From positions 1,128 to 65,127 of the forward strand of contig JABSQO010000008.1 in NCBI GenBank assembly GCA_013215775.1: a stretch of DNA of 64,000 nucleotides. Direction: 5' to 3'. Source of the DNA: Piscirickettsiaceae bacterium. GTDB lineage: Bacteria; Pseudomonadota; Gammaproteobacteria; Nitrosococcales; Methylophagaceae. A program made the position numbers and the translations under genes. Below are positions 9,943 to 24,559 of this stretch, in pieces (the stretch's first letter is position 1; the number at the start of each line of letters is the position of its first letter). Under the pieces are notes generated by a model. The model was not told the DNA's origin, searched no databases, and was given only the letters and a program-made list of their open reading frames with translations.

Positions 9943-11268
9943 TTAGGACTGTAATTTATCGTACACATCAATTGTTTGCTTTGCACAGCGCTGCCATGAA
10001 AATAGTTTTGCCTGCTGTTGACCAGCTTGACTTAATCTTTCGCGCATATTTTCATCTTCTAATAAATTGCTCCACCCATGTGCAATATCATCGACAGAAT
10101 AGGGATCCACTAGCAAACAACCATTTCCCGCAACTTCTGGTATCGAGCTAGTGTTTGATGATAATACAGCTGTACCGCTTGCCATAGCTTCTAAAACAGG
10201 CAATCCAAAACCTTCGTATATAGATGGATACAAAAATACTGTCGCCGCTGCATATAGCTTAGGAAGATCCTGTTCATCAACGTAGCCCAACCGTATTACT
10301 TCTTTTTTCTCAACCAATTGTGAAATTATCTGATGAATATTATCACTTGCCCAGCCCTTATCACCGACAATTGCCAATGGATATAATAATCGTATCTTTT
10401 TCGGCAATTTCTCAAATGCTTGTAATAATCGAACAAAATTCTTTCGCGGCTCTATTGTCGAAACAACAAGGCTGTATTGCTTATATTGTAAGCCGTGCTT
10501 TTCGAGAACACCTTGGCAGTCAACATCTGAATAAGGTTGAAACTTGGGCTCTACACCTAAATACACAACATTGACTTTATCTGCCTCGACATCAAGTAAC
10601 TCAATGATCTCTTGTTTCTGAAATTCTGAGACTGTGATAATCTGCATCGCTCGTCTAGCCACGTCATATATTTCTTTAGTCCAAAAGTCCGTACGCTCCT
10701 TTGGGTGACACTCAGGATGTCTAAGAACCGATAAGTCATGAATTGTCACAACCGATTTGTTTGAGGTTGGAATTAAATGATAATTGGGGCCATGAAAAGT
10801 ATACTTCGGTAAATTTCTTACTATATTTTTATACTTCCAATCCTTAAAGAGGTAATAGCCTCGACGAAAAAAGCCTTTAAATGGTACAAACTTTCGGTAT
10901 TGACGCACCTGCCTCCAATGCTTAAAGTTATTATAGTTTGAAATAAGTTGATCCCGAAAAGGAATCTGTTGTCGATAAGGTATTCGTTCCCAGAAAGGTA
11001 TAAATCGCCAAAAAGGTATATGAATAGAAGTGTTGTTATTTTCCACAGTATCTTGTTGAATTTCAGCACTTTCTCTAGGTATCACTTTTTCAACATATGC
11101 TTCTAATTCCTCCGATGTCTCTAATACCAATTGTTGTGTCAAAGTAAGTAATTTAACATTTTCAACAAGCGGTGATTTTAGAAGTTCTCGAGCTAAAGCC
11201 AAGGTATATCGACCAATCCCTGTTAATGGATGGGCTATAGATTCTATGTCCAGAATAACTCTCATCAA
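9943..11268 (-). CDS. GT4-family glycosyltransferase with an aromatic/basic insertion
   Basis: 441 aa. YPSIYEGFGLPVLEAMASGTAVLSSNTSSIPEVAG (E-x7-E). The N-terminal half carries an insertion with IPFWRFIPFWERIPYRQQIPFRDQ. Confidence 0.8.
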   Translation of the reverse strand: MMRVILDIESIAHPLTGIGRYTLALARELLKSPLVENVKLLTLTQQLVLETSEELEAYVEKVIPRESAEIQQDTVENNNTSIHIPFWRFIPFWERIPYRQQIPFRDQLISNYNNFKHWRQVRQYRKFVPFKGFFRRGYYLFKDWKYKNIVRNLPKYTFHGPNYHLIPTSNKSVVTIHDLSVLRHPECHPKERTDFWTKEIYDVARRAMQIITVSEFQKQEIIELLDVEADKVNVVYLGVEPKFQPYSDVDCQGVLEKHGLQYKQYSLVVSTIEPRKNFVRLLQAFEKLPKKIRLLYPLAIVGDKGWASDNIHQIISQLVEKKEVIRLGYVDEQDLPKLYAAATVFLYPSIYEGFGLPVLEAMASGTAVLSSNTSSIPEVAGNGCLLVDPYSVDDIAHGWSNLLEDENMRERLSQAGQQQAKLFSWQRCAKQTIDVYDKLQS

Positions 11269-14200
11269 AGCATTCCAAAACGAATGAGAACTGATTTACC
11301 ATATCTTCGGAGTCTAGGATAAGGATCCGTCATTTTCTTAACCTTTAGAACTACTCGCCAAACACATCCTTTTAGTTTGTTTTTTAACCTTGACAACAAA
11401 GTGTCTTCAACTTTAGGTATTTCTTTGTCACATTTATGAGTAATTGTCGTTGTTATGTCAAAATCGGGCACCAAAACATTTAATAATACCCTTGCAGTAA
11501 AATCAATCGTGGCTGCGGATAGTCCCAGCGGCTCATAGGCCTTTCGTGTCTCATCTGGCAGTATAAGACCAAACTCTTTAGCAAGGTATTCAGTATGTCG
11601 TGCAGATAGACTGAGTACCGCTTCTTGTTGCGAATCTTTTAATTGAATTTTTCTACCTTCTATCATTGGTAAAAATCCTCTTCCAATATTCCTTTTGTTT
11701 TTAAATTCTGTTCCCAGCGGTATATAACCATCTAATATTTTAATCATCCGGTCACCAATGATTACCGCCTCTTCAGACAGTGAAGAATTATAATTCGGCG
11801 CCATCATTAACACTTTTTCCTCAATTGACTGCGGAAAATTTAGCAATCGCAAAAAATCCAATACAACATTGCCATTTGGTAATAATTCTTTAGAGAAAGG
11901 CCTAACATTAAGTTGTTTTTCTCCAAATACCCTAATTAATTTCTCTAAAAAATCTTGGTAAGGCTGCGTTGGAATATGCATCCCTTCCCAAACTCTTTCG
12001 CCCGTTTTAACACGTTGACTTATCGCACTGGTAGCGTATGACAACGGTGATCTGACATAGAGTACGACTTCAATTTCATCACAGTACTGTTCAAGAAATT
12101 GTTTTATTTGTTCAAGGCTTGACTCTGTCATATGAACAAAGCCCTCACATGACAATACCGCTGTATCTGCTGGAATTTCAAGAAATGCTTTCTCAAGATA
12201 GGAAATATATTCTCTATCCCTGTCTAGAATTTTTTGAAGATGCTGTTCACGATTAAACGATTTGTTATAAATAAATAATTCAGATTCAGGAGTAAAATAG
12301 GATCCTAAATTATGAGCCCTAAGACCGGCCGGATAAAATACACTATTTTTAAGTAATAATTCTCGCCCCTTATGTAAAGTCGTCTGTATAGAGGTCGTCC
12401 CTGTCTTGTCTGGCCCCACATGAAATATTATCTTTTTAAACTTACCTTCTTTTTTCCTTACAATAGCTTCAGGGCCTTTAGGCAAGACCATCCCTCTTCT
12501 TATATCATCTACTTTAGGTGACGAATGCTTAGTACCCGTTGATAGGTCAAAATCAGGTACTAATATGTTCAGAAGCACTCGCGCAGTAAAATCAATTGTT
12601 TCTTTTGAAATATTTAATGGCTCGTATGGAGATATATTTTCATTCTGTAATTCAATACCAAACTCATTGGTAAGATAATCTATATGAGGCTTGCTTGCCT
12701 TAAGAATTTCTTTTCGTTGGAAATCGTTAAATTGGAACTTTCTCCCTTTTATCCGAGGTAAGAACTCTCCACCAATCCCTCTCTTAACCCTAAATTCGTC
12801 CCCAGGAGGAATATAACCATCTAATAATTCTATCATCCTGTTTCCTACCAGCCTCGCTTCGGCTGATAAAGAAGAATTTTGGGGGGGCATTACATCTATT
12901 ACCTTGCTTTGTACCGATTTTGGTAAATTTAATAACGAAAGAAAATCTAAAACCACATTCCCGTTGGGAAGGGATTCTTTTGTAAATTGTCGAATATTAA
13001 TTTTCTTCTTACCAAAAACTCGGATTAACTTTTCCATTACGTCCTGAAATGGGAATGCAGGAAAGAAATTTTCATCAAACGTTCCTTCGCCACGTTTAAC
13101 ACGCTGGCTTAATGCACTCCCCGCGTATGACAGTGGTGCTCTTGCATACAAGACCACTTCAATGTCATCACAATACTCGGTGAGAAATTCTCTCATTCGC
13201 TCAAATGCATCCTCTGCGAGATGGGCAAACCCCTCACATGAAAGAACTAATGTATCCGCTTGTATTTTATTGAAACTATTTTTAAGGAACGCTAAATAAT
13301 TTTGATCTCTATGAAGAATTTCCTGTAAATGCTGTTCACAGTTATATCCCTCGTTATAGATAAATAAGTCTGCTTCAGCAGTAACACAAGATCCTAGTAT
13401 GTGGTGCCTTTTTTTGTTAACACCACTTCCAATAGGGTAAAAAACACCATGTTCAAGTAACAACTCTCGGCTTTTATCTAGGGAAAATTGTATTGATGTT
13501 GAACCAGTTTTATCAGGTCCAACATGTAATATCACTTTCTTATATTTACTTATTTTGGGGGGGGTGACTATAGGAAAGCTGATTTCACTAACTGCATCTG
13601 GATGTATTTTAACAATGCTGTGAGCCATTTTATTTAACTGATCATACATTATCGTATTTTTGGTGAAATACAACTGATAAAAATATTGATAGACTGGTAT
13701 CGCAATGTGTTTCTTCAATTCATTGAGGATAAAAATGACCGTATCAATTTGTTCTGTATTCCATGTTAACTCTCTTTCACTCGTTGAATAATTGATAGGC
13801 ATAAAGAATTTTTCACCCAATAATGCTAATATCATCTCCCTTTCATCAGCTACTACGTTTTCGATTTGGCTAAATTCCCGACCAGTCAATACAAACTTTT
13901 CTCCTTTTATCGCCAATAAAGGAAAAAAATCTCTTCGGTTCTTCATAAGTTCCGAGCTATTGTTATGTATATAATCGATCAACCTCACGGCTTGGCTAGA
14001 CCTCGATTCATTAACAATTTTTAATTTAATTGAATTCTGTTTCTGAATATCTAATAAATTTAGGAAATAGGCTACTGGTCCATTTGGGAACTGACAGGCC
14101 TTCTCAAAGCAGTGAAATTCAACAGATGTCCCGAAAACATCTATCAAAGTTCTTATCTTCAAATAACTTTTTTTATTCTTATTAAGCTTATCTAATTGGG

Positions 14201-14666
14201 CTTGGATACTACCGTTAGGAATTCGTTGTTGAATCTGGGACGTCACCAAATTGCTTGGATCTCGAACAAAGGTTATGACTCTGATCTTAAAGCCCATTAA
14301 ATCAAATTTATTTTTAAGCTCAATAAGCTCCTCTTCATCTAGGCTAGAAATAAATTCGTCAGAAAACAACACACGGTCATGATTGATAATATCCTTTTTA
14401 AGGATATTATCAATTTGTTGATTTATTTGATCCGGATCAAAATCATTAAGCATTTTATAATGCTGAAAGTCTTCTGGATATTTAGTAAAAAAACCAAACA
14501 ATGGAATCGATTGATTATAGAAGCGATGACCTTCTATAAGCATATCGGGATAGTAGTAACCTAGTTTTTTAAGTTTTTCCCTATTGTTGCCCAAGGTGTG
14601 CTGAATCGATGACGAAGCAGTTTTATGAAATCCACAGTGGATAATTAGTTGTTTTTGATTATTCAT
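11265..14666 (-). CDS. Large protein made of three tandem sulfotransferase-like modules
   Basis: 1133 aa. Each module starts with a PAPS-loop-like motif (HCGFHKTASSSIQ at aa 10-22, HVGPDKTGSTSIQ at aa 381-393, HVGPDKTGTTSIQ at aa 749-761). Each also has a 3'-PB-like motif (VRDPSNLVTS, YARAPLSYAGS, YVRSPLSYATS). There is no GxxxxGK[ST] Walker A, so this is a sulfotransferase fold rather than an NTPase. Basic amphipathic C-terminal tail. Confidence 0.55.
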   Translation of the reverse strand: MNNQKQLIIHCGFHKTASSSIQHTLGNNREKLKKLGYYYPDMLIEGHRFYNQSIPLFGFFTKYPEDFQHYKMLNDFDPDQINQQIDNILKKDIINHDRVLFSDEFISSLDEEELIELKNKFDLMGFKIRVITFVRDPSNLVTSQIQQRIPNGSIQAQLDKLNKNKKSYLKIRTLIDVFGTSVEFHCFEKACQFPNGPVAYFLNLLDIQKQNSIKLKIVNESRSSQAVRLIDYIHNNSSELMKNRRDFFPLLAIKGEKFVLTGREFSQIENVVADEREMILALLGEKFFMPINYSTSERELTWNTEQIDTVIFILNELKKHIAIPVYQYFYQLYFTKNTIMYDQLNKMAHSIVKIHPDAVSEISFPIVTPPKISKYKKVILHVGPDKTGSTSIQFSLDKSRELLLEHGVFYPIGSGVNKKRHHILGSCVTAEADLFIYNEGYNCEQHLQEILHRDQNYLAFLKNSFNKIQADTLVLSCEGFAHLAEDAFERMREFLTEYCDDIEVVLYARAPLSYAGSALSQRVKRGEGTFDENFFPAFPFQDVMEKLIRVFGKKKINIRQFTKESLPNGNVVLDFLSLLNLPKSVQSKVIDVMPPQNSSLSAEARLVGNRMIELLDGYIPPGDEFRVKRGIGGEFLPRIKGRKFQFNDFQRKEILKASKPHIDYLTNEFGIELQNENISPYEPLNISKETIDFTARVLLNILVPDFDLSTGTKHSSPKVDDIRRGMVLPKGPEAIVRKKEGKFKKIIFHVGPDKTGTTSIQTTLHKGRELLLKNSVFYPAGLRAHNLGSYFTPESELFIYNKSFNREQHLQKILDRDREYISYLEKAFLEIPADTAVLSCEGFVHMTESSLEQIKQFLEQYCDEIEVVLYVRSPLSYATSAISQRVKTGERVWEGMHIPTQPYQDFLEKLIRVFGEKQLNVRPFSKELLPNGNVVLDFLRLLNFPQSIEEKVLMMAPNYNSSLSEEAVIIGDRMIKILDGYIPLGTEFKNKRNIGRGFLPMIEGRKIQLKDSQQEAVLSLSARHTEYLAKEFGLILPDETRKAYEPLGLSAATIDFTARVLLNVLVPDFDITTTITHKCDKEIPKVEDTLLSRLKNKLKGCVWRVVLKVKKMTDPYPRLRRYGKSVLIRFGML
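11442..13547 (-). repeat. In-frame tandem duplication (about 1.1 kb x 2) inside the 1133-aa gene
   Basis: aa 374-741 and aa 742-~1075 align end to end, roughly 60% identical by eye. Examples: VLSCEGFAHLAEDAFERMREFLTEYCDDIEVVLYARAPLSYAGSALSQRVK vs VLSCEGFVHMTESSLEQIKQFLEQYCDEIEVVLYVRSPLSYATSAISQRVK; LPNGNVVLDFLSLLNLP vs LPNGNVVLDFLRLLNFP; IDFTARVLLNILVPDFD vs IDFTARVLLNVLVPDFD. Confidence 0.85.
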
Positions 14667-16415: not shown

Positions 16416-16464
16416 TGTAAATTCTGATGACCTCTATTAAATTTCATTTGTACTCTTTCAGCAG

Positions 16465-17796
16465 TCATTGGTTTTTAAGAAAGTTCATAATACTACGCAG
16501 TGGTGCAGTTATCCGCCATGAATGGCTACGATATAACATTTCTAGTTTGCTCTCTACTTGGTTTACTTTAGATTCCGCTTGCTGTGCTAAGACTTCAGCT
16601 TGGTCTGTTTTGCCATTAGCCTGCTCTACTTTCGCTTCTGCTTGTTCTACTTTCGCTTCTGCTTGTTCTACTTTCGCTTCTGCTTGTTCTACTTTCGCTT
16701 CTGCTTCTTTTATTTTAGTTTCAACCTCAGAAAGATTACTCATAGCATTAGAAAGTTCTGCCTCATATCTTTTTACAATTTTTCGAGCTGTCATCTCTTT
16801 ACTCACAATAAGATTCTTATCTACCTGTGACACCTTCGCTAAAGATATTCTTTCTTCATTTAGCGCCCTTAATTCTTTCATTTCATATTGACTGTAGCCA
16901 TGTTTCACCAATAAGTCATGAATTTCTTGTTCTATCTCATTATAAAAACCTGTTTCACTCTGCACATAAATTGATTGCGGCATATCACAATCTGAAAAAT
17001 CAATTCCTTGCACACCTAAGTTATCTAAATTATTGAGAATGTCTTTACGATAATAATCCGAATAACTCAATTGATCGATATTAATAGCTATATCACAACT
17101 AGGTTTCGCTTCAAGAAATGCATGGCACCATAAGGCATAGAAAAGCTTATAACTTCTTGGTGCATCTAACCTATTTCGGTTTAAGGAAGTTTGTTGTTCG
17201 ACCTTTTCCCATGAATTAAATTGTTCAAGTTCAAGATCGCTAATCACTTCAGTCAAAAATGGGGGTATATTTTGTGCATTTGCAATCAATAGATTCCGTT
17301 GATCAAAGTAATTGTCTATTTTATAAGACCACCACTGGTTCCAAGGATGTCGCCACAAAAATATATGCACTCCTCCAAACTCTGTTTTCAAACATGCTGT
17401 ACGTCCAGATGTACGACAACATTGAAAAACAGGACGGCCCTGTGCTCTATTTGATAAAAAAGTGAAATAATCTTTAAGATTACTAACATCACTACCTGCC
17501 GGTAAAAAATATTGATAATAAGAAAGCTCTTTGGGGAAAGTATTCTTTATCTCACCAGCGATCATTTGAAATTCATAATAGTAAGGCTTATCGATCTGTG
17601 GATGATTCAAATATCTAGCCATTTCTTTACCAACTTCTTGCATCTGATTGGTATCAAGTAATAATAAATGCTCATTTAATGGTTCTTGGTAACACCAGTA
17701 CCCAGAATTGGACCGGCGAAAAACATTAAATAAATAAGTGCTTCCTGAACGGAAAAGAGAGTGAATAAAAATTGGACTTTTATCTTTTTTATTCAT
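16465..17796 (-). CDS. Sulfotransferase-family protein with a C-terminal heptad-repeat coiled coil
   Basis: 443 aa. 5'-PSB-like IFIHSLFRSGSTYLFNVF and 3'-PB-like FLWRHPWNQWWSYK. The C-terminus is KEAEAKVEQAEAKVEQAEAKVEQAEAKVEQANGKTDQAEVLAQQAESKVNQVESKLEMLYRSHSWRITAPLRSIMNFL. Confidence 0.65.
   Translation of the reverse strand: MNKKDKSPIFIHSLFRSGSTYLFNVFRRSNSGYWCYQEPLNEHLLLLDTNQMQEVGKEMARYLNHPQIDKPYYYEFQMIAGEIKNTFPKELSYYQYFLPAGSDVSNLKDYFTFLSNRAQGRPVFQCCRTSGRTACLKTEFGGVHIFLWRHPWNQWWSYKIDNYFDQRNLLIANAQNIPPFLTEVISDLELEQFNSWEKVEQQTSLNRNRLDAPRSYKLFYALWCHAFLEAKPSCDIAINIDQLSYSDYYRKDILNNLDNLGVQGIDFSDCDMPQSIYVQSETGFYNEIEQEIHDLLVKHGYSQYEMKELRALNEERISLAKVSQVDKNLIVSKEMTARKIVKRYEAELSNAMSNLSEVETKIKEAEAKVEQAEAKVEQAEAKVEQAEAKVEQANGKTDQAEVLAQQAESKVNQVESKLEMLYRSHSWRITAPLRSIMNFLKNQ
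16619..16702 (-). repeat. 21-bp tandem repeat, four copies (three perfect, one with 2 mismatches), coding for (AEAKVEQ)n
   Basis: The unit gcttgttctactttcgcttct occurs at 16640-16660, 16661-16681 and 16682-16702. A diverged copy is at 16619-16639 and a partial copy follows to ~16710. It is in frame within the sulfotransferase gene. Confidence 0.95.
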
Positions 17797-19224: not shown

Positions 19225-20675
19225 TATTCTCGACCATACATATCGTCAAACCGCACAATATCATCTTCGCCAAGATATTCACCACTTTGCACTTCGATAA
19301 TAATCAAATCAACAACACCAGGGTTCCCTAACCGATGTTTATGTCCTGCGGAGATATACGTTGATTCATTTTTATTTAACAGAAACTCTTTACCATCATT
19401 CGTTACTTGGGCTATTCCGCTCACCACAACCCAATGCTCACTGCGGTGATGGTGTGTTTGCAAGGAAAGATAAGCAGCTGGTTTAACAACAATACGCTTG
19501 ATTTGAAAATTCTCGCCTTCTTCAAGGACGGTATAGGTACCCCATGGTCGGTGAACTTCTAAATGTGTTTTATGAAGGTTATATTCACCTTGTTTGAGTT
19601 GAGTAACAATCTTTTTAACATCTTGACTACGTGTTTTATCGGCGATTAACAATGCATCAGCCGTGTCTACAATAATTAAGTTGTCAATACCAATAGCACC
19701 AACCATTCGTCCTTCATTTTGAATATAACAATTTGTCACATCATGCAGTAATGCCTGACCTACTACACGATTACCATCTGAATCTGGCTGTTTAAGCTCA
19801 CTAATCGCATACCACGAACCAATATCACTCCAGCCAATATCACAAGCAATCATCGCCACTTTGTTCGATTTTTCCATTAACGCAAAATCAATAGAAATAT
19901 CAGGAGCATGACTAAAATCATCTTCTGTCAATCGAATTGAACCCGTGTTTTCATTACTTTTTGAATACGAACTCGCGAAACTAGCTTTGGCACTATTAAG
20001 TACCTCTGGTGCATACTGTTCCAGCTCTGCCAAGAGGGTTCCGACACTAAAGCAAAACATGCCTGAATTCCAAAAATAATTGCCCGAAGCAAGATATTCT
20101 TTTGCTTTATCAAGTGACGGTTTTTCAACAAACTGTTTAACGACATAACCCTGACTATTTGTACCGGCAAGTAAATCTGAATGACTATCTGCTGCAATAT
20201 AACCAAATCCTGTTTCAGGAGTTTCTGGTCGAATACCAAATGTTACTAAATAAGCTTGTTGTGCTAATTGAGTCGCATTGGAAACAGCTTCTGAAAATGC
20301 ATCTTGGTCAACAATCAAATGATCTGCCGCTAACACTAGCATAAGGGCATCGTCACCATGAGATTTGGCTATTTTAAGTGCTGCAATGGCAATGGCTGGG
20401 GCAGTATTCCGACCGAAAGGCTCTAAAATAAAAGAGCATGGTAGATCACCTGTATTTACCAGCGAATAATCATCTTGAGTTTTGAAGTATAGATCTCGAT
20501 TTGTGACTGTGATGATTTCGACTACATTCGATAAATTTACAGCTCTAGATAATGTTTTTTGCAACAAAGTTTCACCATCTTCCATGAGCATAAATGGTTT
20601 TGGATGCAACTCTCTTGAAACAGGCCACAGACGACTTCCCGCACCTCCTGATAAAATTATAGGTATCAGTTCCAT
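19224..20675 (-). CDS. manC: Bifunctional mannose-1-phosphate guanylyltransferase / mannose-6-phosphate isomerase (type II PMI)
   Basis: 483 aa. N-terminal [18 protein letters not shown]-terminal cupin [19 protein letters not shown]...[10 protein letters not shown]. Confidence 0.9.
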
Positions 20676-21006
20676 ACTAAAATATCTTCACCTTTAACAA
20701 TACAAGAATAAAAACCAACACGTTTCGCTTTGGGTGAGATGCAGTATATCCTAATTGGCAGCCCACTCTACCCCTCTTTTAGGCCTAGGAAGACACTTAA
20801 TTTATAAAAGCTTCTAATCTCAACGATATGCTAGTTAAGAATTTTCAGATCATTGCCTCATATTCAGTCGGTAAAATATATTCCCTAACTTTTGATGCAA
20901 GCATTATGATCATCGGATGATTGTCCAAGCCTATACATTCCCACTTAATATTCTATCGTAAAAGTTCACTTTAAAACTCATATACTCTCGTTATCAAGTC
21001 ATTAAA

Positions 21007-21612
21007 CTAGGATTGATATCGCCAGTATGGTTTACTTAAAATATAGACTATTAAAATAGGCAATATAAAGACAGAAAAATAAGTCGTTAAATCAAAGATA
21101 AAATTGATCGTAGTCGTGGATAGTGGTGAGAAGTAACTCTCATAGGGAATCTTACTTAACGCAGGATCATAAACAAAATACTGAGATTCAGCGGACAAAT
21201 ATACATAAATAGGAAGCATTATCTTTATCCACAGATATAGTGTAGTAATAAAGAATAATACGCATGTCCCCAAAATTATGTTTTTTATCCTTTTATAAGG
21301 AAGAGATGTAGCTGCTGCCCAATAGATCGGATAAGAAAATAATACAAGAGAAATCTGATTAATTCTAAAGTTCATCGACTGTAATTCACTCGGTTCTGGC
21401 GCAACAATCCTTGTTGCCGCAACCCAAGAATTTTCATCCAGCATGAATAATTTAGGGTAGATATGTGGCAATGTTTTTTCGAATAAAAATGCACTTATTT
21501 CACTAAAAGCTGGAATCAACACTGGCTGGAGAATAAAAAGCCAAAAGCCAATATAGAATATAAACCAAAGCAGAGCCAAACGAAAAACAGGTATAAGGTT
21601 AGGATGTAACAT
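21007..21612 (-). CDS. Polytopic membrane protein, partner of the mini-exosortase (function unknown)
   Basis: 201 aa, ~5 TM segments, no motif recognised. Its start overlaps the exosortase-like gene by 14 nt, which suggests translational coupling. Confidence 0.5.
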   Translation of the reverse strand: MLHPNLIPVFRLALLWFIFYIGFWLFILQPVLIPAFSEISAFLFEKTLPHIYPKLFMLDENSWVAATRIVAPEPSELQSMNFRINQISLVLFSYPIYWAAATSLPYKRIKNIILGTCVLFFITTLYLWIKIMLPIYVYLSAESQYFVYDPALSKIPYESYFSPLSTTTINFIFDLTTYFSVFILPILIVYILSKPYWRYQS

Positions 21613-22114
21613 TATTTTCAGGTTCGTGGCTACTGAAATAAGAAATCCAAGCTAAAAATATCACTAATACCCATAACTGTAGTAGTAAAGGCCAAACATT
21701 TTCATGAATAAAATTAAATGTACTTAATTCATACCAATGACCAATATAAACAAGGCTAACCAGTCTTATAATATTGACAATCTGTATCAATACCGCACCA
21801 ACAATCAGTCCACATAAGCGCCATTTCCAGTGTAGTGGATAGGCCAAAATACCAGCATAAAGTAAGACAGTTACAAATAAACCACTACACGTTTCAGTAA
21901 CAGTGATGAAGAAACCATCAGAAATACCTAATCCCAAGGTATGAGCCAATGATGAGCTAGGCTTGGAAATAAAATCACTATCGAAAACATTCGTAATAAT
22001 CGCTGTTACTTGAGCAAGTAAATAAGTGAAATTATTAACGACTGATGAACCAAACGATAATAACCAATAACCTACTAGAAACACTATCAGGAAGATTGTA
22101 AAAAAACGAGCCAT
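21599..22114 (-). CDS. Minimal exosortase/archaeosortase-family protein (171 aa; XrtH-like by size)
   Basis: 5 predicted TM segments. It has the ordered catalytic-type residues of the family: Cys in VTETCSGLF, Arg in IQIVNIIRLVSL and His in FNFIHENVWP. Confidence 0.6.
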   Translation of the reverse strand: MARFFTIFLIVFLVGYWLLSFGSSVVNNFTYLLAQVTAIITNVFDSDFISKPSSSLAHTLGLGISDGFFITVTETCSGLFVTVLLYAGILAYPLHWKWRLCGLIVGAVLIQIVNIIRLVSLVYIGHWYELSTFNFIHENVWPLLLQLWVLVIFLAWISYFSSHEPENNVTS

Positions 22115-22123
22115 GCGGTTTAT

Positions 22124-23008
22124 CTAAACTTGAGAACTACTGGTGACATTAGAATCTGACCTAGCGATAGTTTTCTTTTGTGGTGATGGAGAGTAAATAA
22201 ACGGTTGAATCAGAGTACTGATTAAGCCTTGTTCCTTGTCTGACCTAAAGTATTCCAAACCTAGGCGAAGCTCTTCTTGCTCTGCTATAGGGATGTGTTG
22301 ATATGTACCGAACATACGATCCCAAAAACTAAAAACATCCGCATAATTAGAGTTAGTCTGTGCTTTATCGGCCGAGTGGTGAACGCGGTGCATACTAGGC
22401 GTTACAATGACCATTTTCAGTATCTTATCTAATTTATCTGGTACTCGTATGTCAGAATGTGGCCAAAATGCATAAAATCCATACACAACATTATAGACAA
22501 GGAATACCCATATATCGACACCAAGGAGCACCGTAGTTAAGAAAACTAAAGGAATATCTAGCATTCGCTCTAAAGGATGAAACCTAAGCGAAACTGAAAA
22601 ATCCAAATCTTTATCTGTATGATGGATTAGGTGAAACCGCCATATTGGTCGCCATGCATGTGAAAAACGATGCAACCAATAAACAAAAAAGTCATGTAAA
22701 ACGAAATAAGCTAAAAGTTGCAATCCAACAGAGGCATTCGGCAAATAATTAAATAAGCCAAACTCAAAAGATGATGCACTAGATTCAGCAGTAAAATTGA
22801 ACCATTTTAATAATGAATAAGAGATTAAACTTGTGAGCATGTAAAGCGAGAGATTAACAAACCAACGTCTAATCTCAGGTTCTCTTTTTTTGCAGTACCT
22901 ATACGTGCTCGTAATAGAGTCTAGGAATATGTAAAAAACAACCAAGCCACACAGGTAAACAAATACACCCTTACCACCTAGAAACTCTATAATTAATTCT
23001 AAATCCAC
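22124..23008 (-). CDS. Fatty-acid hydroxylase / sterol desaturase superfamily membrane protein
   Basis: 294 aa, polytopic. Three His boxes: HDFFVYWLHRFSH, HLIHHTD and MHRVHHS. GTG start at 23008, 8 nt after the stop of the 57-aa ORF. Confidence 0.75.
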   Translation of the reverse strand: MDLELIIEFLGGKGVFVYLCGLVVFYIFLDSITSTYRYCKKREPEIRRWFVNLSLYMLTSLISYSLLKWFNFTAESSASSFEFGLFNYLPNASVGLQLLAYFVLHDFFVYWLHRFSHAWRPIWRFHLIHHTDKDLDFSVSLRFHPLERMLDIPLVFLTTVLLGVDIWVFLVYNVVYGFYAFWPHSDIRVPDKLDKILKMVIVTPSMHRVHHSADKAQTNSNYADVFSFWDRMFGTYQHIPIAEQEELRLGLEYFRSDKEQGLISTLIQPFIYSPSPQKKTIARSDSNVTSSSQV

Positions 23009-23016
23009 AGAGTTTG

Positions 23017-23190
23017 TTATTTTTTATTTTTAAATCTCGTGCTTAACTTTTTCGCTCCAATAGCCGCAATAACGATACCACCAGAAATTAAGGCAAAACC
23101 TGAATCAAATGTAGATGCTGTTGGACTCAGCGCTGCATTAGCCACTTCACCAAAGCTCATAAGAACAACTAATAACGTAAATTTTTTCAT
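23017..23190 (-). CDS. Unannotated 57-aa pre-peptide: signal peptide plus a C-terminal sorting-signal-like TM and basic tail
   Basis: Below the 60-aa cut-off of the ORF track. My translation: MKKFTLLVVLMSFGEVANAALSPTASTFDSGFALISGGIVIAAIGAKKLSTRFKNKK*. Shine-Dalgarno GAGAGGA lies 5 nt upstream of the ATG (23190..23188), and the stop TAA is at 23019..23017. It is the first gene of the cassette. Confidence 0.55.
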   Translation of the reverse strand: MKKFTLLVVLMSFGEVANAALSPTASTFDSGFALISGGIVIAAIGAKKLSTRFKNKK

Positions 23191-23334
23191 TTCTATCCTC
23201 TCAATCCAATAAATATCAAATTTTTACAGCCTAAACAGTACATCCCAACCAGCTAACAAACCACTACCTTTCGATTTACATCAAATTCAATTCTTATAGT
23301 AAAGACTATCATCACATATCTACAAACTTTTAAG

Positions 23335-23357
23335 TACCCCCCTTAAGTAGGGGGGTA
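23335..23357. repeat. G6/C6-core palindrome in the divergent promoter region
   Basis: tacccccc (23335-23342), loop ttaagta, ggggggta (23350-23357). The heptamer ttaagta also directly precedes the left arm. The core resembles the hairpin at 8788-8817. Confidence 0.7.
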
Positions 23358-23473
23358 TCTACTACAAGTAAAAATCATCCTTTAGCTTGTTAAGGATAAC
23401 TTAACTTATTGATTCATTGTCTTAAATCTGATAGGTTTCAACATACTATACGTATGGAAACTTAAAGATTAAG

Positions 23474-24559
23474 ATGGCAAAACAAACAAATTATCGTCTT
23501 GAGCAACTTTCGCAGCTGGACTTACCAAGCCAAATATTTATCCCTGCACTATTACAAGAATTGCACTTCACCATCCCTTCACTATCAAATACATTTTGCT
23601 GGCAGGATGACGATGGAAGCCTAAGCAATATTTATGATGAAGTATCCAATACAACAATTCTAAAGAAATTTATTATTTCACTATCAAACACTACGCCAAA
23701 GAAGCATAATCATATAAATAGCTGCATTATCCAGTTAGCAAAACCAATCACGTCATTTGAACATACTAAACAGTATCCCTTTCTTGCCGAATGTTACAAA
23801 ACAGTTTTATTACCTTTAGGTTATGTAAATACCTGTTTTATCCCGATATTTCATGACAAAACGAGCAAACGCCTTGGCCTACTAATGATCCATAGAGCTA
23901 AGAATGATAATCCATTTAGTGAAGATGACTACTTAAACCTTGAATTTATTACAAGTATCATTGCTGAAGGCCTAGCCCCCCCTAATCACCGACCACTTTT
24001 TATGACGGATGGTTTAGAACAGGGCATTCTCATTGTTGATAGCATAGGTGAACTTCAGCGTGCATGTCCGATGGGAGAAAAACTTCTCTCAATGGCATCA
24101 TCGCCCACTTTTAATCTCACATCTTCAGCAAATTTCTCACCTTATAACCTTCATGTTTTTCCTCAATATTCGGACTTAATTCAAACTATCCTTGATACCG
24201 ACAATAAACGAGAAGTACCATCCTTTAAAGCTTTAACCATTAAAAATGCATGGGGTGAATTTAAATTGCATAGTTTTATGATTGAAGATAAGGCGGGGAG
24301 ACGTTCAGCACAAATAGGATTGAATATTCGTCGGCAAGAACCATTTTCACTGACACTGTTTCGAAAAATAAAGAAACTAAAACTGACGCCTCGACAAGAA
24401 ACAGTCAGCTTACTTTATGCTTCTGGAGACCACCATCAAACTATCGCCGAAAAACTTAATTTGAGCCTTTATACAGTAAAGGAACATGTTAAAAACATAA
24501 CCACCCGACTTGATATTCATTCAAGAGCCGATCTAATTGAGCTAATTCTTTGCGATTAA
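23474..24559 (+). CDS. LuxR-family transcriptional regulator with an uncharacterised ~290-aa N-terminal domain
   Basis: 361 aa. C-terminal LuxR/GerE helix-turn-helix LTPRQETVSLLYASGDHHQTIAEKLNLSLYTVKEHVKNITTRLDIHSRADLIELI. No receiver or autoinducer-binding motif recognised upstream. Confidence 0.75.
   Translation: MAKQTNYRLEQLSQLDLPSQIFIPALLQELHFTIPSLSNTFCWQDDDGSLSNIYDEVSNTTILKKFIISLSNTTPKKHNHINSCIIQLAKPITSFEHTKQYPFLAECYKTVLLPLGYVNTCFIPIFHDKTSKRLGLLMIHRAKNDNPFSEDDYLNLEFITSIIAEGLAPPNHRPLFMTDGLEQGILIVDSIGELQRACPMGEKLLSMASSPTFNLTSSANFSPYNLHVFPQYSDLIQTILDTDNKREVPSFKALTIKNAWGEFKLHSFMIEDKAGRRSAQIGLNIRRQEPFSLTLFRKIKKLKLTPRQETVSLLYASGDHHQTIAEKLNLSLYTVKEHVKNITTRLDIHSRADLIELILCD

Follow-up and report, generated by a model that had tools for sequence, protein, structure and literature searches.

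A 57-codon gene upstream of an exosortase H operon: a candidate minimal XrtH substrate in a Piscirickettsiaceae contig

Can a protein that consists of a signal peptide, a sorting-signal-like end and hardly any cargo be the product of a real gene, and what would an exosortase do with it? The question is raised by a 64,000-nucleotide stretch of a Piscirickettsiaceae bacterium (contig JABSQO010000008.1, positions 1,128 to 65,127), referred to here as the window and numbered from its first letter. It contains an open reading frame (ORF) of 57 codons, the mini-ORF, followed on the same strand by three tightly packed genes for an FA_hydroxylase, an exosortase H (XrtH) and an XrtH-associated membrane protein. 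Exosortases are widespread, and to our knowledge the attachment target of their substrates has never been established biochemically for any bacterial exosortase. On comparative evidence the mini-ORF is a real, conserved gene, judged so because its frame is conserved at equivalent, diverged loci. With moderate confidence we hold that it is translated into a minimal substrate, or substrate-like partner, dedicated to the XrtH whose gene lies two positions downstream. Its product, the mini-peptide, may be the smallest natural XrtH substrate known.

The mini-ORF and its family

The ORF at 23017-23190 and its translation, MKKFTLLVVLMSFGEVANAALSPTASTFDSGFALISGGIVIAAIGAKKLSTRFKNKK*, are exactly as an earlier note on this DNA gave them, and the Shine-Dalgarno sequence GAGAGGA that the note placed 5 nucleotides (nt) before the ATG is present at 23202-23196. 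The mini-ORF comprises the following features:

23017..23190, minus strand: mini-ORF, 57 codons plus stop, with signal peptide, stub of 11 amino acids (aa) and sorting-signal-like transmembrane (TM) segment with basic tail
23196..23202, minus strand: Shine-Dalgarno-like GAGAGGA, read from the sequence, followed by the spacer TAGAA and the ATG
23134..23190, minus strand: predicted Sec signal peptide, residues 1-19, by inspection
23101..23133, minus strand: predicted periplasmic stub, residues 20-30 (ALSPTASTFDS), from the alignment of five mini-peptides
23053..23100, minus strand: short Gly/Ala-rich predicted TM segment, residues 31-46 (GFALISGGIVIAAIGA), mean Kyte-Doolittle hydropathy 2.10
23020..23052, minus strand: basic tail, predicted cytoplasmic, residues 47-57 (KKLSTRFKNKK), with 6 Lys/Arg and 0 acidic residues

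The predicted signal peptide has the n-region MKK, the h-region FTLLVVLMSF and a c-region ending in A-N-A just ahead of A20. The stub is the sole "cargo" of the mini-peptide and includes the conserved core of the family, ASTF[GD]S-G. In a six-frame scan of the 64-kb window no other ORF has both an xPTxxx[WFY]-type motif and, at its C-terminal end, a hydrophobic stretch with a basic tail. It had been described as unannotated, which does not hold for public data: the product is listed in GenBank as NQZ53793.1, "hypothetical protein", from a Piscirickettsiaceae metagenome-assembled genome. Six contigs from a single metagenome series have the identical peptide among their gene calls; they add no diversity because their DNA is 99.8-100% identical. 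An antisense ORF at 23039-23212 on the plus strand is dismissed as purely mechanical, since the conserved frame is on the minus strand.

A word-indexed search of 5.8 billion proteins with the mini-peptide returned only itself and a fragment, and homologous loci were therefore sought through XrtH, which in the same type of search returned only a fragment. When 1.84 billion cluster representatives were searched exhaustively with HMMER, only three full-length close XrtH relatives came up (42-48% identity), the next ones lying at ~35-39%. All three could be placed on contigs (L013, L014 and L015), and all three possess the same cassette:

L013: 60-aa ORF, FA_hydroxylase, XrtH, XrtH_assoc
L014: uncalled 57-aa ORF (counted from its ATG), FA_hydroxylase, XrtH, contig end
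L015: 57-aa ORF and 56-aa ORF, FA_hydroxylase, XrtH, 207-aa XrtH_assoc homologue

The search upstream of homologous desaturase-exosortase cassettes that had been proposed for this locus thus finds a small ORF of the same architecture in each of L013, L014 and L015, with the reading frame conserved. The homologous mini-ORFs encode 56-60 aa and share the position and strand of the window ORF; their four products are MKYLVSVFALLFVSSFAVA/ATGAPAATFGSGYELFAGTALLGAVGLKKVASLIDRNKNSK, MNYTFVILLAISSASYA/SGPPVSAIGSGMELLAAAAVMGIFGARKVVSRFKNKDRQD, MKVSMFTAALIGPTAAFA/ATGAPASTFGSGFELFAAAGVLGAVGAKKAAVLLKRKK and MKITVLMLLMFPFSVFA/ATGVPASVSGTGLEFVAASLLVIGASMRFIKKKDSDSEAQ, the slash marking the predicted end of the signal peptide. 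The layout is constant in all five mini-peptides: a signal peptide of 17-19 aa, a stub of 10-11 aa, a Gly/Ala-rich hydrophobic segment of 16 aa and a tail with 4-6 Lys/Arg. By inspection, the residues at -3/-1 of the signal peptidase site are small throughout (A/A, A/A, S/A, A/A and V/A). In 10 of 10 pairs of mini-ORFs the proportion of nonsynonymous differences (pN 0.26-0.46) lies below that of synonymous ones (pS 0.67-0.87), with synonymous sites saturated, and each ORF is preceded by a purine-rich, Shine-Dalgarno-like tract, weak in L014.

The neighbouring exosortase had been put forward as the likely partner; it proves to be an XrtH, and the order peptide-desaturase-XrtH recurs in the three close relatives. 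All 4 loci with a mini-peptide encode XrtH two genes downstream, and no copy of the peptide was found away from an XrtH. The gene has thus largely withstood the conditions under which the earlier note would have given it up. The more distant XrtH loci L007-L012 and L096-L100 (P0012, P0013, P0014, P0016, P0018, P0021, P0157, P0158) contain neither desaturase nor mini-ORF, so the cassette is confined to a small XrtH subclade. Contigs of GTDB genomes and of JGI metagenomes gave no match to patterns of this XrtH clade, and the JGI contigs gave none to patterns of the mini-peptide family. XrtH of the subclade (window residues ~50-66; L013-L015) carries an insertion of 8-11 residues, KPS-x-S...[GA]-[LI]-G, in the loop just before the helix of the catalytic Cys. 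This KPSxS...G stretch is partly invariant within the subclade, and no other aligned XrtH has it, not even the Nitrotoga enzymes encoded beside midcut genes.

Sorting-signal architecture and the midcut-by-XrtH counterpart

Exosortase-type sorting signals are tripartite, with the motif abutting the helix, and "dedicated" one-to-one enzyme/target pairs are encoded by neighbouring genes (Haft 2023, bioRxiv 10.1101/2023.06.07.544157). The family consensus of the mini-peptides is A/ATG-x-P-A-S-T-F-G-S-G-[FYML]-E-[LF], then the helix, then G-A-[KR]-K, with ATGxPASTFGS as the consensus of the stub and [ST]-x-[GD]-[ST]-G-[FYML] as the conserved core at the helix boundary. Divergence is greatest in the window peptide, which has ALS in place of ATG. 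The mini-peptide resembles dedicated pairs and PEP-CTERM/exosortase systems in having its gene next to that of the enzyme, in one operon, and in its tripartite signal. It differs from them in that known targets put a passenger domain on the cell surface, whereas the mini-peptide effectively has none; "sorting" therefore cannot be its purpose in the usual sense.

The earlier note had described a Sec signal peptide with an A-x-A site, ~11 polar residues, a TM segment and a Lys/Arg tail, which inspection bears out in all five members. Its further claim of a tripartite, exosortase-type end is supported: the layout of motif, TM segment and basic cluster is present in 5/5, with the caveat that recognition by CTERM hidden Markov models (HMMs) fails. 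TIGR04174 IPTL_CTERM (cutoff 20.5 bits) matches none of the five mini-peptides even at E <= 10, although it scores the Nitrotoga cargo proteins used as positive controls at 35.8 and 44.9 bits. TIGR02595 PEP-CTERM likewise matches none of the five, nor does NF033207 (cutoff 45 bits). The comparison with IPTL-CTERM and other CTERM models that had been suggested thus comes out negative, and the mini-peptide is not filed as IPTL-CTERM because no CTERM HMM matches it. The IPTLxxWG signature before the helix is absent, the window having SPTASTFD and the homologues GAPASTFG, GPPVSAIG and GVPASVSG, with no Trp. A loose likeness of SPTASTF to IPTLxxW had been pointed out; it is not a conserved family property, since the window Pro-Thr is out of register with the Pro of the homologues, and it too goes without a CTERM match.

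Like IPTL-CTERM proteins (TIGR04174), the mini-peptide has the C-terminal layout of motif, TM segment and basic cluster, and its gene lies near XrtH. The tripartite C-terminus is combined with an N-terminal signal peptide, as in IPTL-CTERM proteins, in 5/5 members, 4-6 Lys/Arg following the 16-aa segment. The end of the helix is Gly-rich before the basic residues in both groups (...LGMFGMGAMRRR in Nitrotoga cargo proteins, ...GAVGAKK or ...AAIGAKK in the mini-peptides). In contrast to IPTL-CTERM proteins, the mini-peptides give no HMM match and conserve neither I-P-T-L nor W-G, and they have only 11 residues ahead of the helix where canonical carriers have real passenger domains. In canonical loci a gene for a CTERM-bearing substrate commonly adjoins XrtH (L055, L081, L083, L088 and L093), its product being 495-1235 aa long, of the IPTLSEWG type in L055, L088 and L093 and with PALPTWG in L081 and L083. 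A substrate gene beside XrtH is thus the norm, because canonical XrtH loci often have cargo-bearing CTERM proteins adjacent.

Scanned with a canonical XrtH profile, the GTDB species genomes gave 80 loci. In four of these (L047, L061, L064 and L076), which are Nitrotoga or other Nitrosomonadales loci, tblastn with the window desaturase detects a full-length homologue (30-33% identity) directly upstream of XrtH. The eight cassette desaturases of both kinds of loci can be aligned over their full length without a change in any His box, and the Nitrotoga desaturase-XrtH pairs look orthologous to the window pair. A gene of 169-176 aa lies 6 nt upstream of the desaturase in all four, two in tandem in L047, and the products of these genes score 99.6-109.6 bits on NF033207 "midcut-by-XrtH protein" (cutoff 45). 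One midcut protein reaches 17.8 bits on IPTL_CTERM, below the cutoff of that model. The midcut genes (NF033207) are located as follows:

L047: 88-723 and 780-1301
L061: 2490-3017
L064: 3300-3830
L076: 4532-5041
L084: 2277-2879

All eight loci with the desaturase next to XrtH are thus headed by a mini-peptide gene (4) or a midcut gene (4), directly upstream of the desaturase, and the remaining loci contain just one more midcut gene, that of L084. The gene order X-FA_hydroxylase-XrtH-XrtH_assoc is the same in the window, L013-L015, L047, L061, L064 and L076 (the L014 contig ends after XrtH).

Midcut proteins begin with a signal peptide, a stub of ~17-20 residues (GT-x-x-Y-G-P...), SIP[TA]LSG[FS]ML, a short helix and R-x-L-R-x-H; after this basic cluster follow a second TM segment and a domain of ~100 aa with conserved Cys. 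The suggestion that the mini-peptide carries an exosortase signal gains from this comparison, as the same slot in Nitrotoga-type loci holds a midcut-by-XrtH protein with an IPTLSG motif after its signal peptide and short stub. Both kinds of genes are situated directly upstream of the FA_hydroxylase-XrtH-XrtH_assoc operon with a gap of 6-8 nt to the hydroxylase, both occur in tandem copies (mini-peptides in L015, midcuts in L047), and by inspection the products are alike in predicted layout, with a Sec signal peptide at the N-terminus, then a short stub that is conserved, an S-G-aromatic motif right next to a short TM helix, and a basic cluster. The window peptide differs from midcut proteins in stopping 11 residues past the helix, whereas the midcut alignment runs ~110 residues further, in its lack of a second TM segment and of the C-terminal, Cys-containing domain of ~100 aa, in having neither an IPTL/IPAL signature nor an NF033207 score, and in going with a distinct XrtH subclade that bears the loop insertion. 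A local midcut HMM does not retrieve the mini-peptides and a local mini-peptide HMM does not retrieve midcut proteins. The sole hhalign alignment, itself not significant, sets S-G-F-E-L...K of the mini-peptides on S-G-F-M-L...R of the midcuts, and in this non-significant register 14 residues separate the aromatic from the first basic residue in both families (hand count). By predicted layout and gene position the mini-peptide is the counterpart of midcut-by-XrtH proteins, and the most fitting description of the window peptide is a midcut-type XrtH partner ending right after the sorting signal.

In the Nitrotoga loci L055, L088 and L093 XrtH aligns closely with that of the midcut loci, yet adjoins genes for large IPTLSEWG-CTERM cargo proteins, so that one XrtH type seems to serve both classes. 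XrtH systems and the idea of a cut by XrtH in mid-protein are already known through curated models, and the literature searched contained nothing on XrtH, IPTL-CTERM substrates or "midcut-by-XrtH". The cargo-less form of 56-60 aa, with its own motif and its own XrtH subclade, is covered by no model.

Further ORFs were noticed near XrtH in other loci. L011 possesses an uncalled ORF directly upstream of XrtH (1588-1923) with a CTERM-like tail, ...PPPSPPPVSASTDSPLMLFFFSLGIIGVAVGLRKLGSQKG, whose GxxGxxxG-x-RK end recalls the mini-peptides; it has no visible signal peptide, and runs of N lie nearby in the contig. Luminiphilus-/Halieaceae-type loci contain a conserved ORF of ~57-73 codons just upstream of XrtH on the opposite strand (L034 5750-5923, L040 5749-5943 and L041 1532-1753, all minus), with two hydrophobic segments (...GMFAFS.W...TGDWVAL.F..GSLAYG..FASG...) and a sequence unrelated to the mini-peptide. 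Halieaceae/Halioglobus-type and related gammaproteobacterial loci (L019 2128-5013, L046 2012-5017, L075 2134-4986 and L077 2131-4965) have an ORF of ~950-1000 aa that ends ~1 kb upstream of XrtH with a TM segment and an RKRLRKRR-type cluster, ...LNYG.A.LWLG.LA..HWLRKRLR+RRY....

The operon and its surroundings

The genes and elements around the mini-ORF in the window are:

22124..23008, minus strand: membrane di-iron enzyme of the FA_hydroxylase / "sterol desaturase" family (PF04116, E = 1.3e-29)
21599..22114, minus strand: exosortase H, XrtH (TIGR04177, 98.5 bits against a cutoff of 86)
21007..21612, minus strand: XrtH-associated polytopic membrane protein, 201 aa (weak precomputed match to PF28117 XrtH_assoc), overlapping the XrtH stop
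23474..24559, plus strand: LuxR/GerE-family helix-turn-helix protein, divergently transcribed (PF00196, E = 4.3e-11)
23335..23357, no strand assigned: perfect inverted repeat with 9-bp G/C-rich arms, TACCCCCCT-n5-AGGGGGGTA, unique in the window, 0 expected in shuffles

The GTG start of the desaturase lies 8 nt past the stop of the mini-ORF, and this gap suggests translational coupling. Its best NCBIfam match is OlsE with 92.6 bits, far under the cutoff of 475 bits. Cys, Arg and His form the proposed catalytic triad of exosortases (Haft 2023), and in an alignment of the window XrtH with 22 relatives (23 sequences) Cys76, Arg117 and His137 are invariant; with the cutoff of the curated HMM passed and the triad conserved, the window enzyme classes as an exosortase H by sequence. 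Homologues of the associated membrane protein follow XrtH in L007-L013 and L015. No relatives of XrtH or the desaturase were found among PDB sequences, and none of XrtH on plasmids. The LuxR/GerE-family gene has no homologue at L013-L015, and its product is a possible local regulator.

The inverted repeat lies in the AT-rich intergenic DNA that separates the mini-ORF from the divergent LuxR-type gene, and no T-run follows it; it may be an operator or form an RNA hairpin. A sigma70 promoter proposed upstream of the mini-ORF fared poorly: the bases are present but match the consensus at only 3 of 6 (TTGTAG) and 4 of 6 (TACTAT) positions, the site is missing from our promoter scan, and the region is no richer in promoter-like sites than shuffled sequence. 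Positions 20600-23600 contain no terminator-like site and no excess of promoter-like ones, and no Rfam RNA family was detected between 20000 and 25000.

Farther downstream of the XrtH operon are genes of the GDP-mannose pathway and sulfotransferase-like genes. A 443-aa protein (16465-17796, minus strand) has a weakly sulfotransferase-like N-terminus and a C-terminal coiled coil with four exact AEAKVEQ repeats, which account for its alanine-zipper matches; the same repeat yields a mechanical antisense ORF of 154 aa (16427-16891, plus strand) with (CSTFASA)n. A 1133-aa protein without family match (11265-14666, minus strand), whose gene clusters with those of the GDP-mannose pathway, displays an evident internal duplication into two halves of ~370 aa, each starting with ...HVGPDKTG(S/T)TSIQ... 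and ending with ...IDFTARVLLN(I/V)LVPDFD.

Role of the mini-peptide

Several points weigh against the mini-peptide as a minimal substrate or substrate-like partner of XrtH. None of the CTERM or midcut HMMs of NCBIfam and Pfam matches any of the five mini-peptides at E <= 10, the lone exception being Heimdall-CTERM on one homologue (E = 0.24, 11.9 bits against a cutoff of 24), judged meaningless. The profile-profile similarity of mini-peptides and midcut proteins is not significant (hhalign E = 0.025, probability 1.9%). The window peptide itself deviates at conserved positions (G to D and E to A), its Pro-Thr is shifted by one column relative to the Pro of the homologues, and the family is known from only 4 loci. 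Two other classes of protein were considered and rejected. A type IV or Flp prepilin does not fit, as the G-F-E spacing is unlike the motifs G/FTLIE or G/xxxxEY, the signal peptide is of the classical hydrophobic kind, no Pfam match appears at E <= 10 and no pilus genes are among those read around the mini-ORF; a lipoprotein does not fit because the mini-peptide has no Cys.

The missing HMM recognition is shared ground with a somewhat unlikely alternative, in which the mini-peptide stays uncleaved as a single-pass membrane protein and partners either the FA hydroxylase or the complex of XrtH and XrtH_assoc in a structural or regulatory role, for instance that of a pseudo-substrate or adaptor. 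It would explain why the mini-gene always lies immediately upstream of the desaturase and not of XrtH, at a distance of 8 nt in the window, and why conservation extends over the entire stub, starting at the signal-peptidase site, which is unlike ordinary cargo-motif junctions and fits a protein-protein contact surface. The slot, however, is that of the midcut-by-XrtH proteins with their recognisable IPTL motif, and sorting signals are typically marked by just such a basic tail and a motif directly next to the helix. Tandem copies, present for the mini-gene in L015 and for midcut genes in L047, are commoner among substrates or precursors than among stoichiometric subunits, and for this reason the substrate or precursor fits better.

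C-terminal peptides from sortase cleavage act as signals in streptococci, and a very unlikely variant would have the membrane fragment left after the cut, or the cleavage itself, as the functional product, the cassette sensing or regulating XrtH activity or the state of the envelope. The stub is indeed too short for a conventional surface protein, and the part downstream of the cut seems to matter in the midcut family because its members retain, beyond the presumed cleavage, a large C-terminal part anchored in the membrane. Yet precisely the C-terminal portion that a midcut would have as its functional product is gone from the mini family, whose stub is better conserved than its TM segment and tail, and no sensor kinase is conserved at the loci. 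That the C-terminal two-thirds of midcut proteins are missing, and that the family is rare, could also point to a decaying midcut remnant or a chance ORF without function. This is already disfavoured and scarcely credible, given that length, stop position and layout are kept in four loci whose XrtH are 42-48% identical, that pN stays below pS in all pairs despite saturated synonymous sites, that the gene is duplicated in L015 and Shine-Dalgarno-like tracts are retained, and that the 8-nt gap before the desaturase leaves no room for remnant sequence.

If the mini-peptide is a minimal XrtH substrate, the 57-aa pre-peptide would be a Sec export substrate that signal peptidase I cleaves after A-N-A, leaving a type-I membrane peptide of 38 aa with a periplasmic stub of 11 residues, a helix of 16 residues and a cytoplasmic Lys/Arg tail, a topology predicted from the layout. 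By analogy with other sorting enzymes, XrtH would recognise the [ST]-x-[GD]-[ST]-G-aromatic helix boundary and cut there. ArtA-dependent processing goes with lipid attachment and rhombosortase processing with glycerophosphoethanolamine attachment, while one-step transpeptidation is unproven for any of these sorting enzymes (Haft 2023). Speculatively, and after the model of these two, the stub of ~8-11 residues might be handed to an acceptor. A modified membrane lipid would be the most likely and most economical guess for this acceptor, itself speculative, because the gene between those of the peptide and XrtH is a conserved one for a lipid-type di-iron hydroxylase. Extended to the whole four-gene cassette, the proposal becomes that of a factory for a ribosomal lipopeptide (or a glyco-/lipo-conjugate), in which XrtH would move a peptide of ~8-11 residues (ATGxPASTFG-like) onto a membrane lipid tailored by the hydroxylase; we hold this extension to be unlikely.

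The mini-peptides form a small family of real genes that are labelled hypothetical or left uncalled because no model covers them, and thus mark a gap in annotation. Both cassette types share the sorting signal, the signal peptide and, between them, a stub of <= ~20 residues. The large midcut domain is outside this common set, which shifts the half of a "midcut" protein that counts as the product. With a candidate substrate of 38 residues when mature, in a compact four-gene operon together with a lipid-oxidising enzyme, the locus offers a practical test system. Should the lipopeptide proposal be true, an exosortase would make a small-molecule-like component of the envelope and not a protein anchor, from a precursor that is only leader and sorting signal, and the mini-peptide would be the first natural minimal substrate for solving the acceptor chemistry of exosortases.

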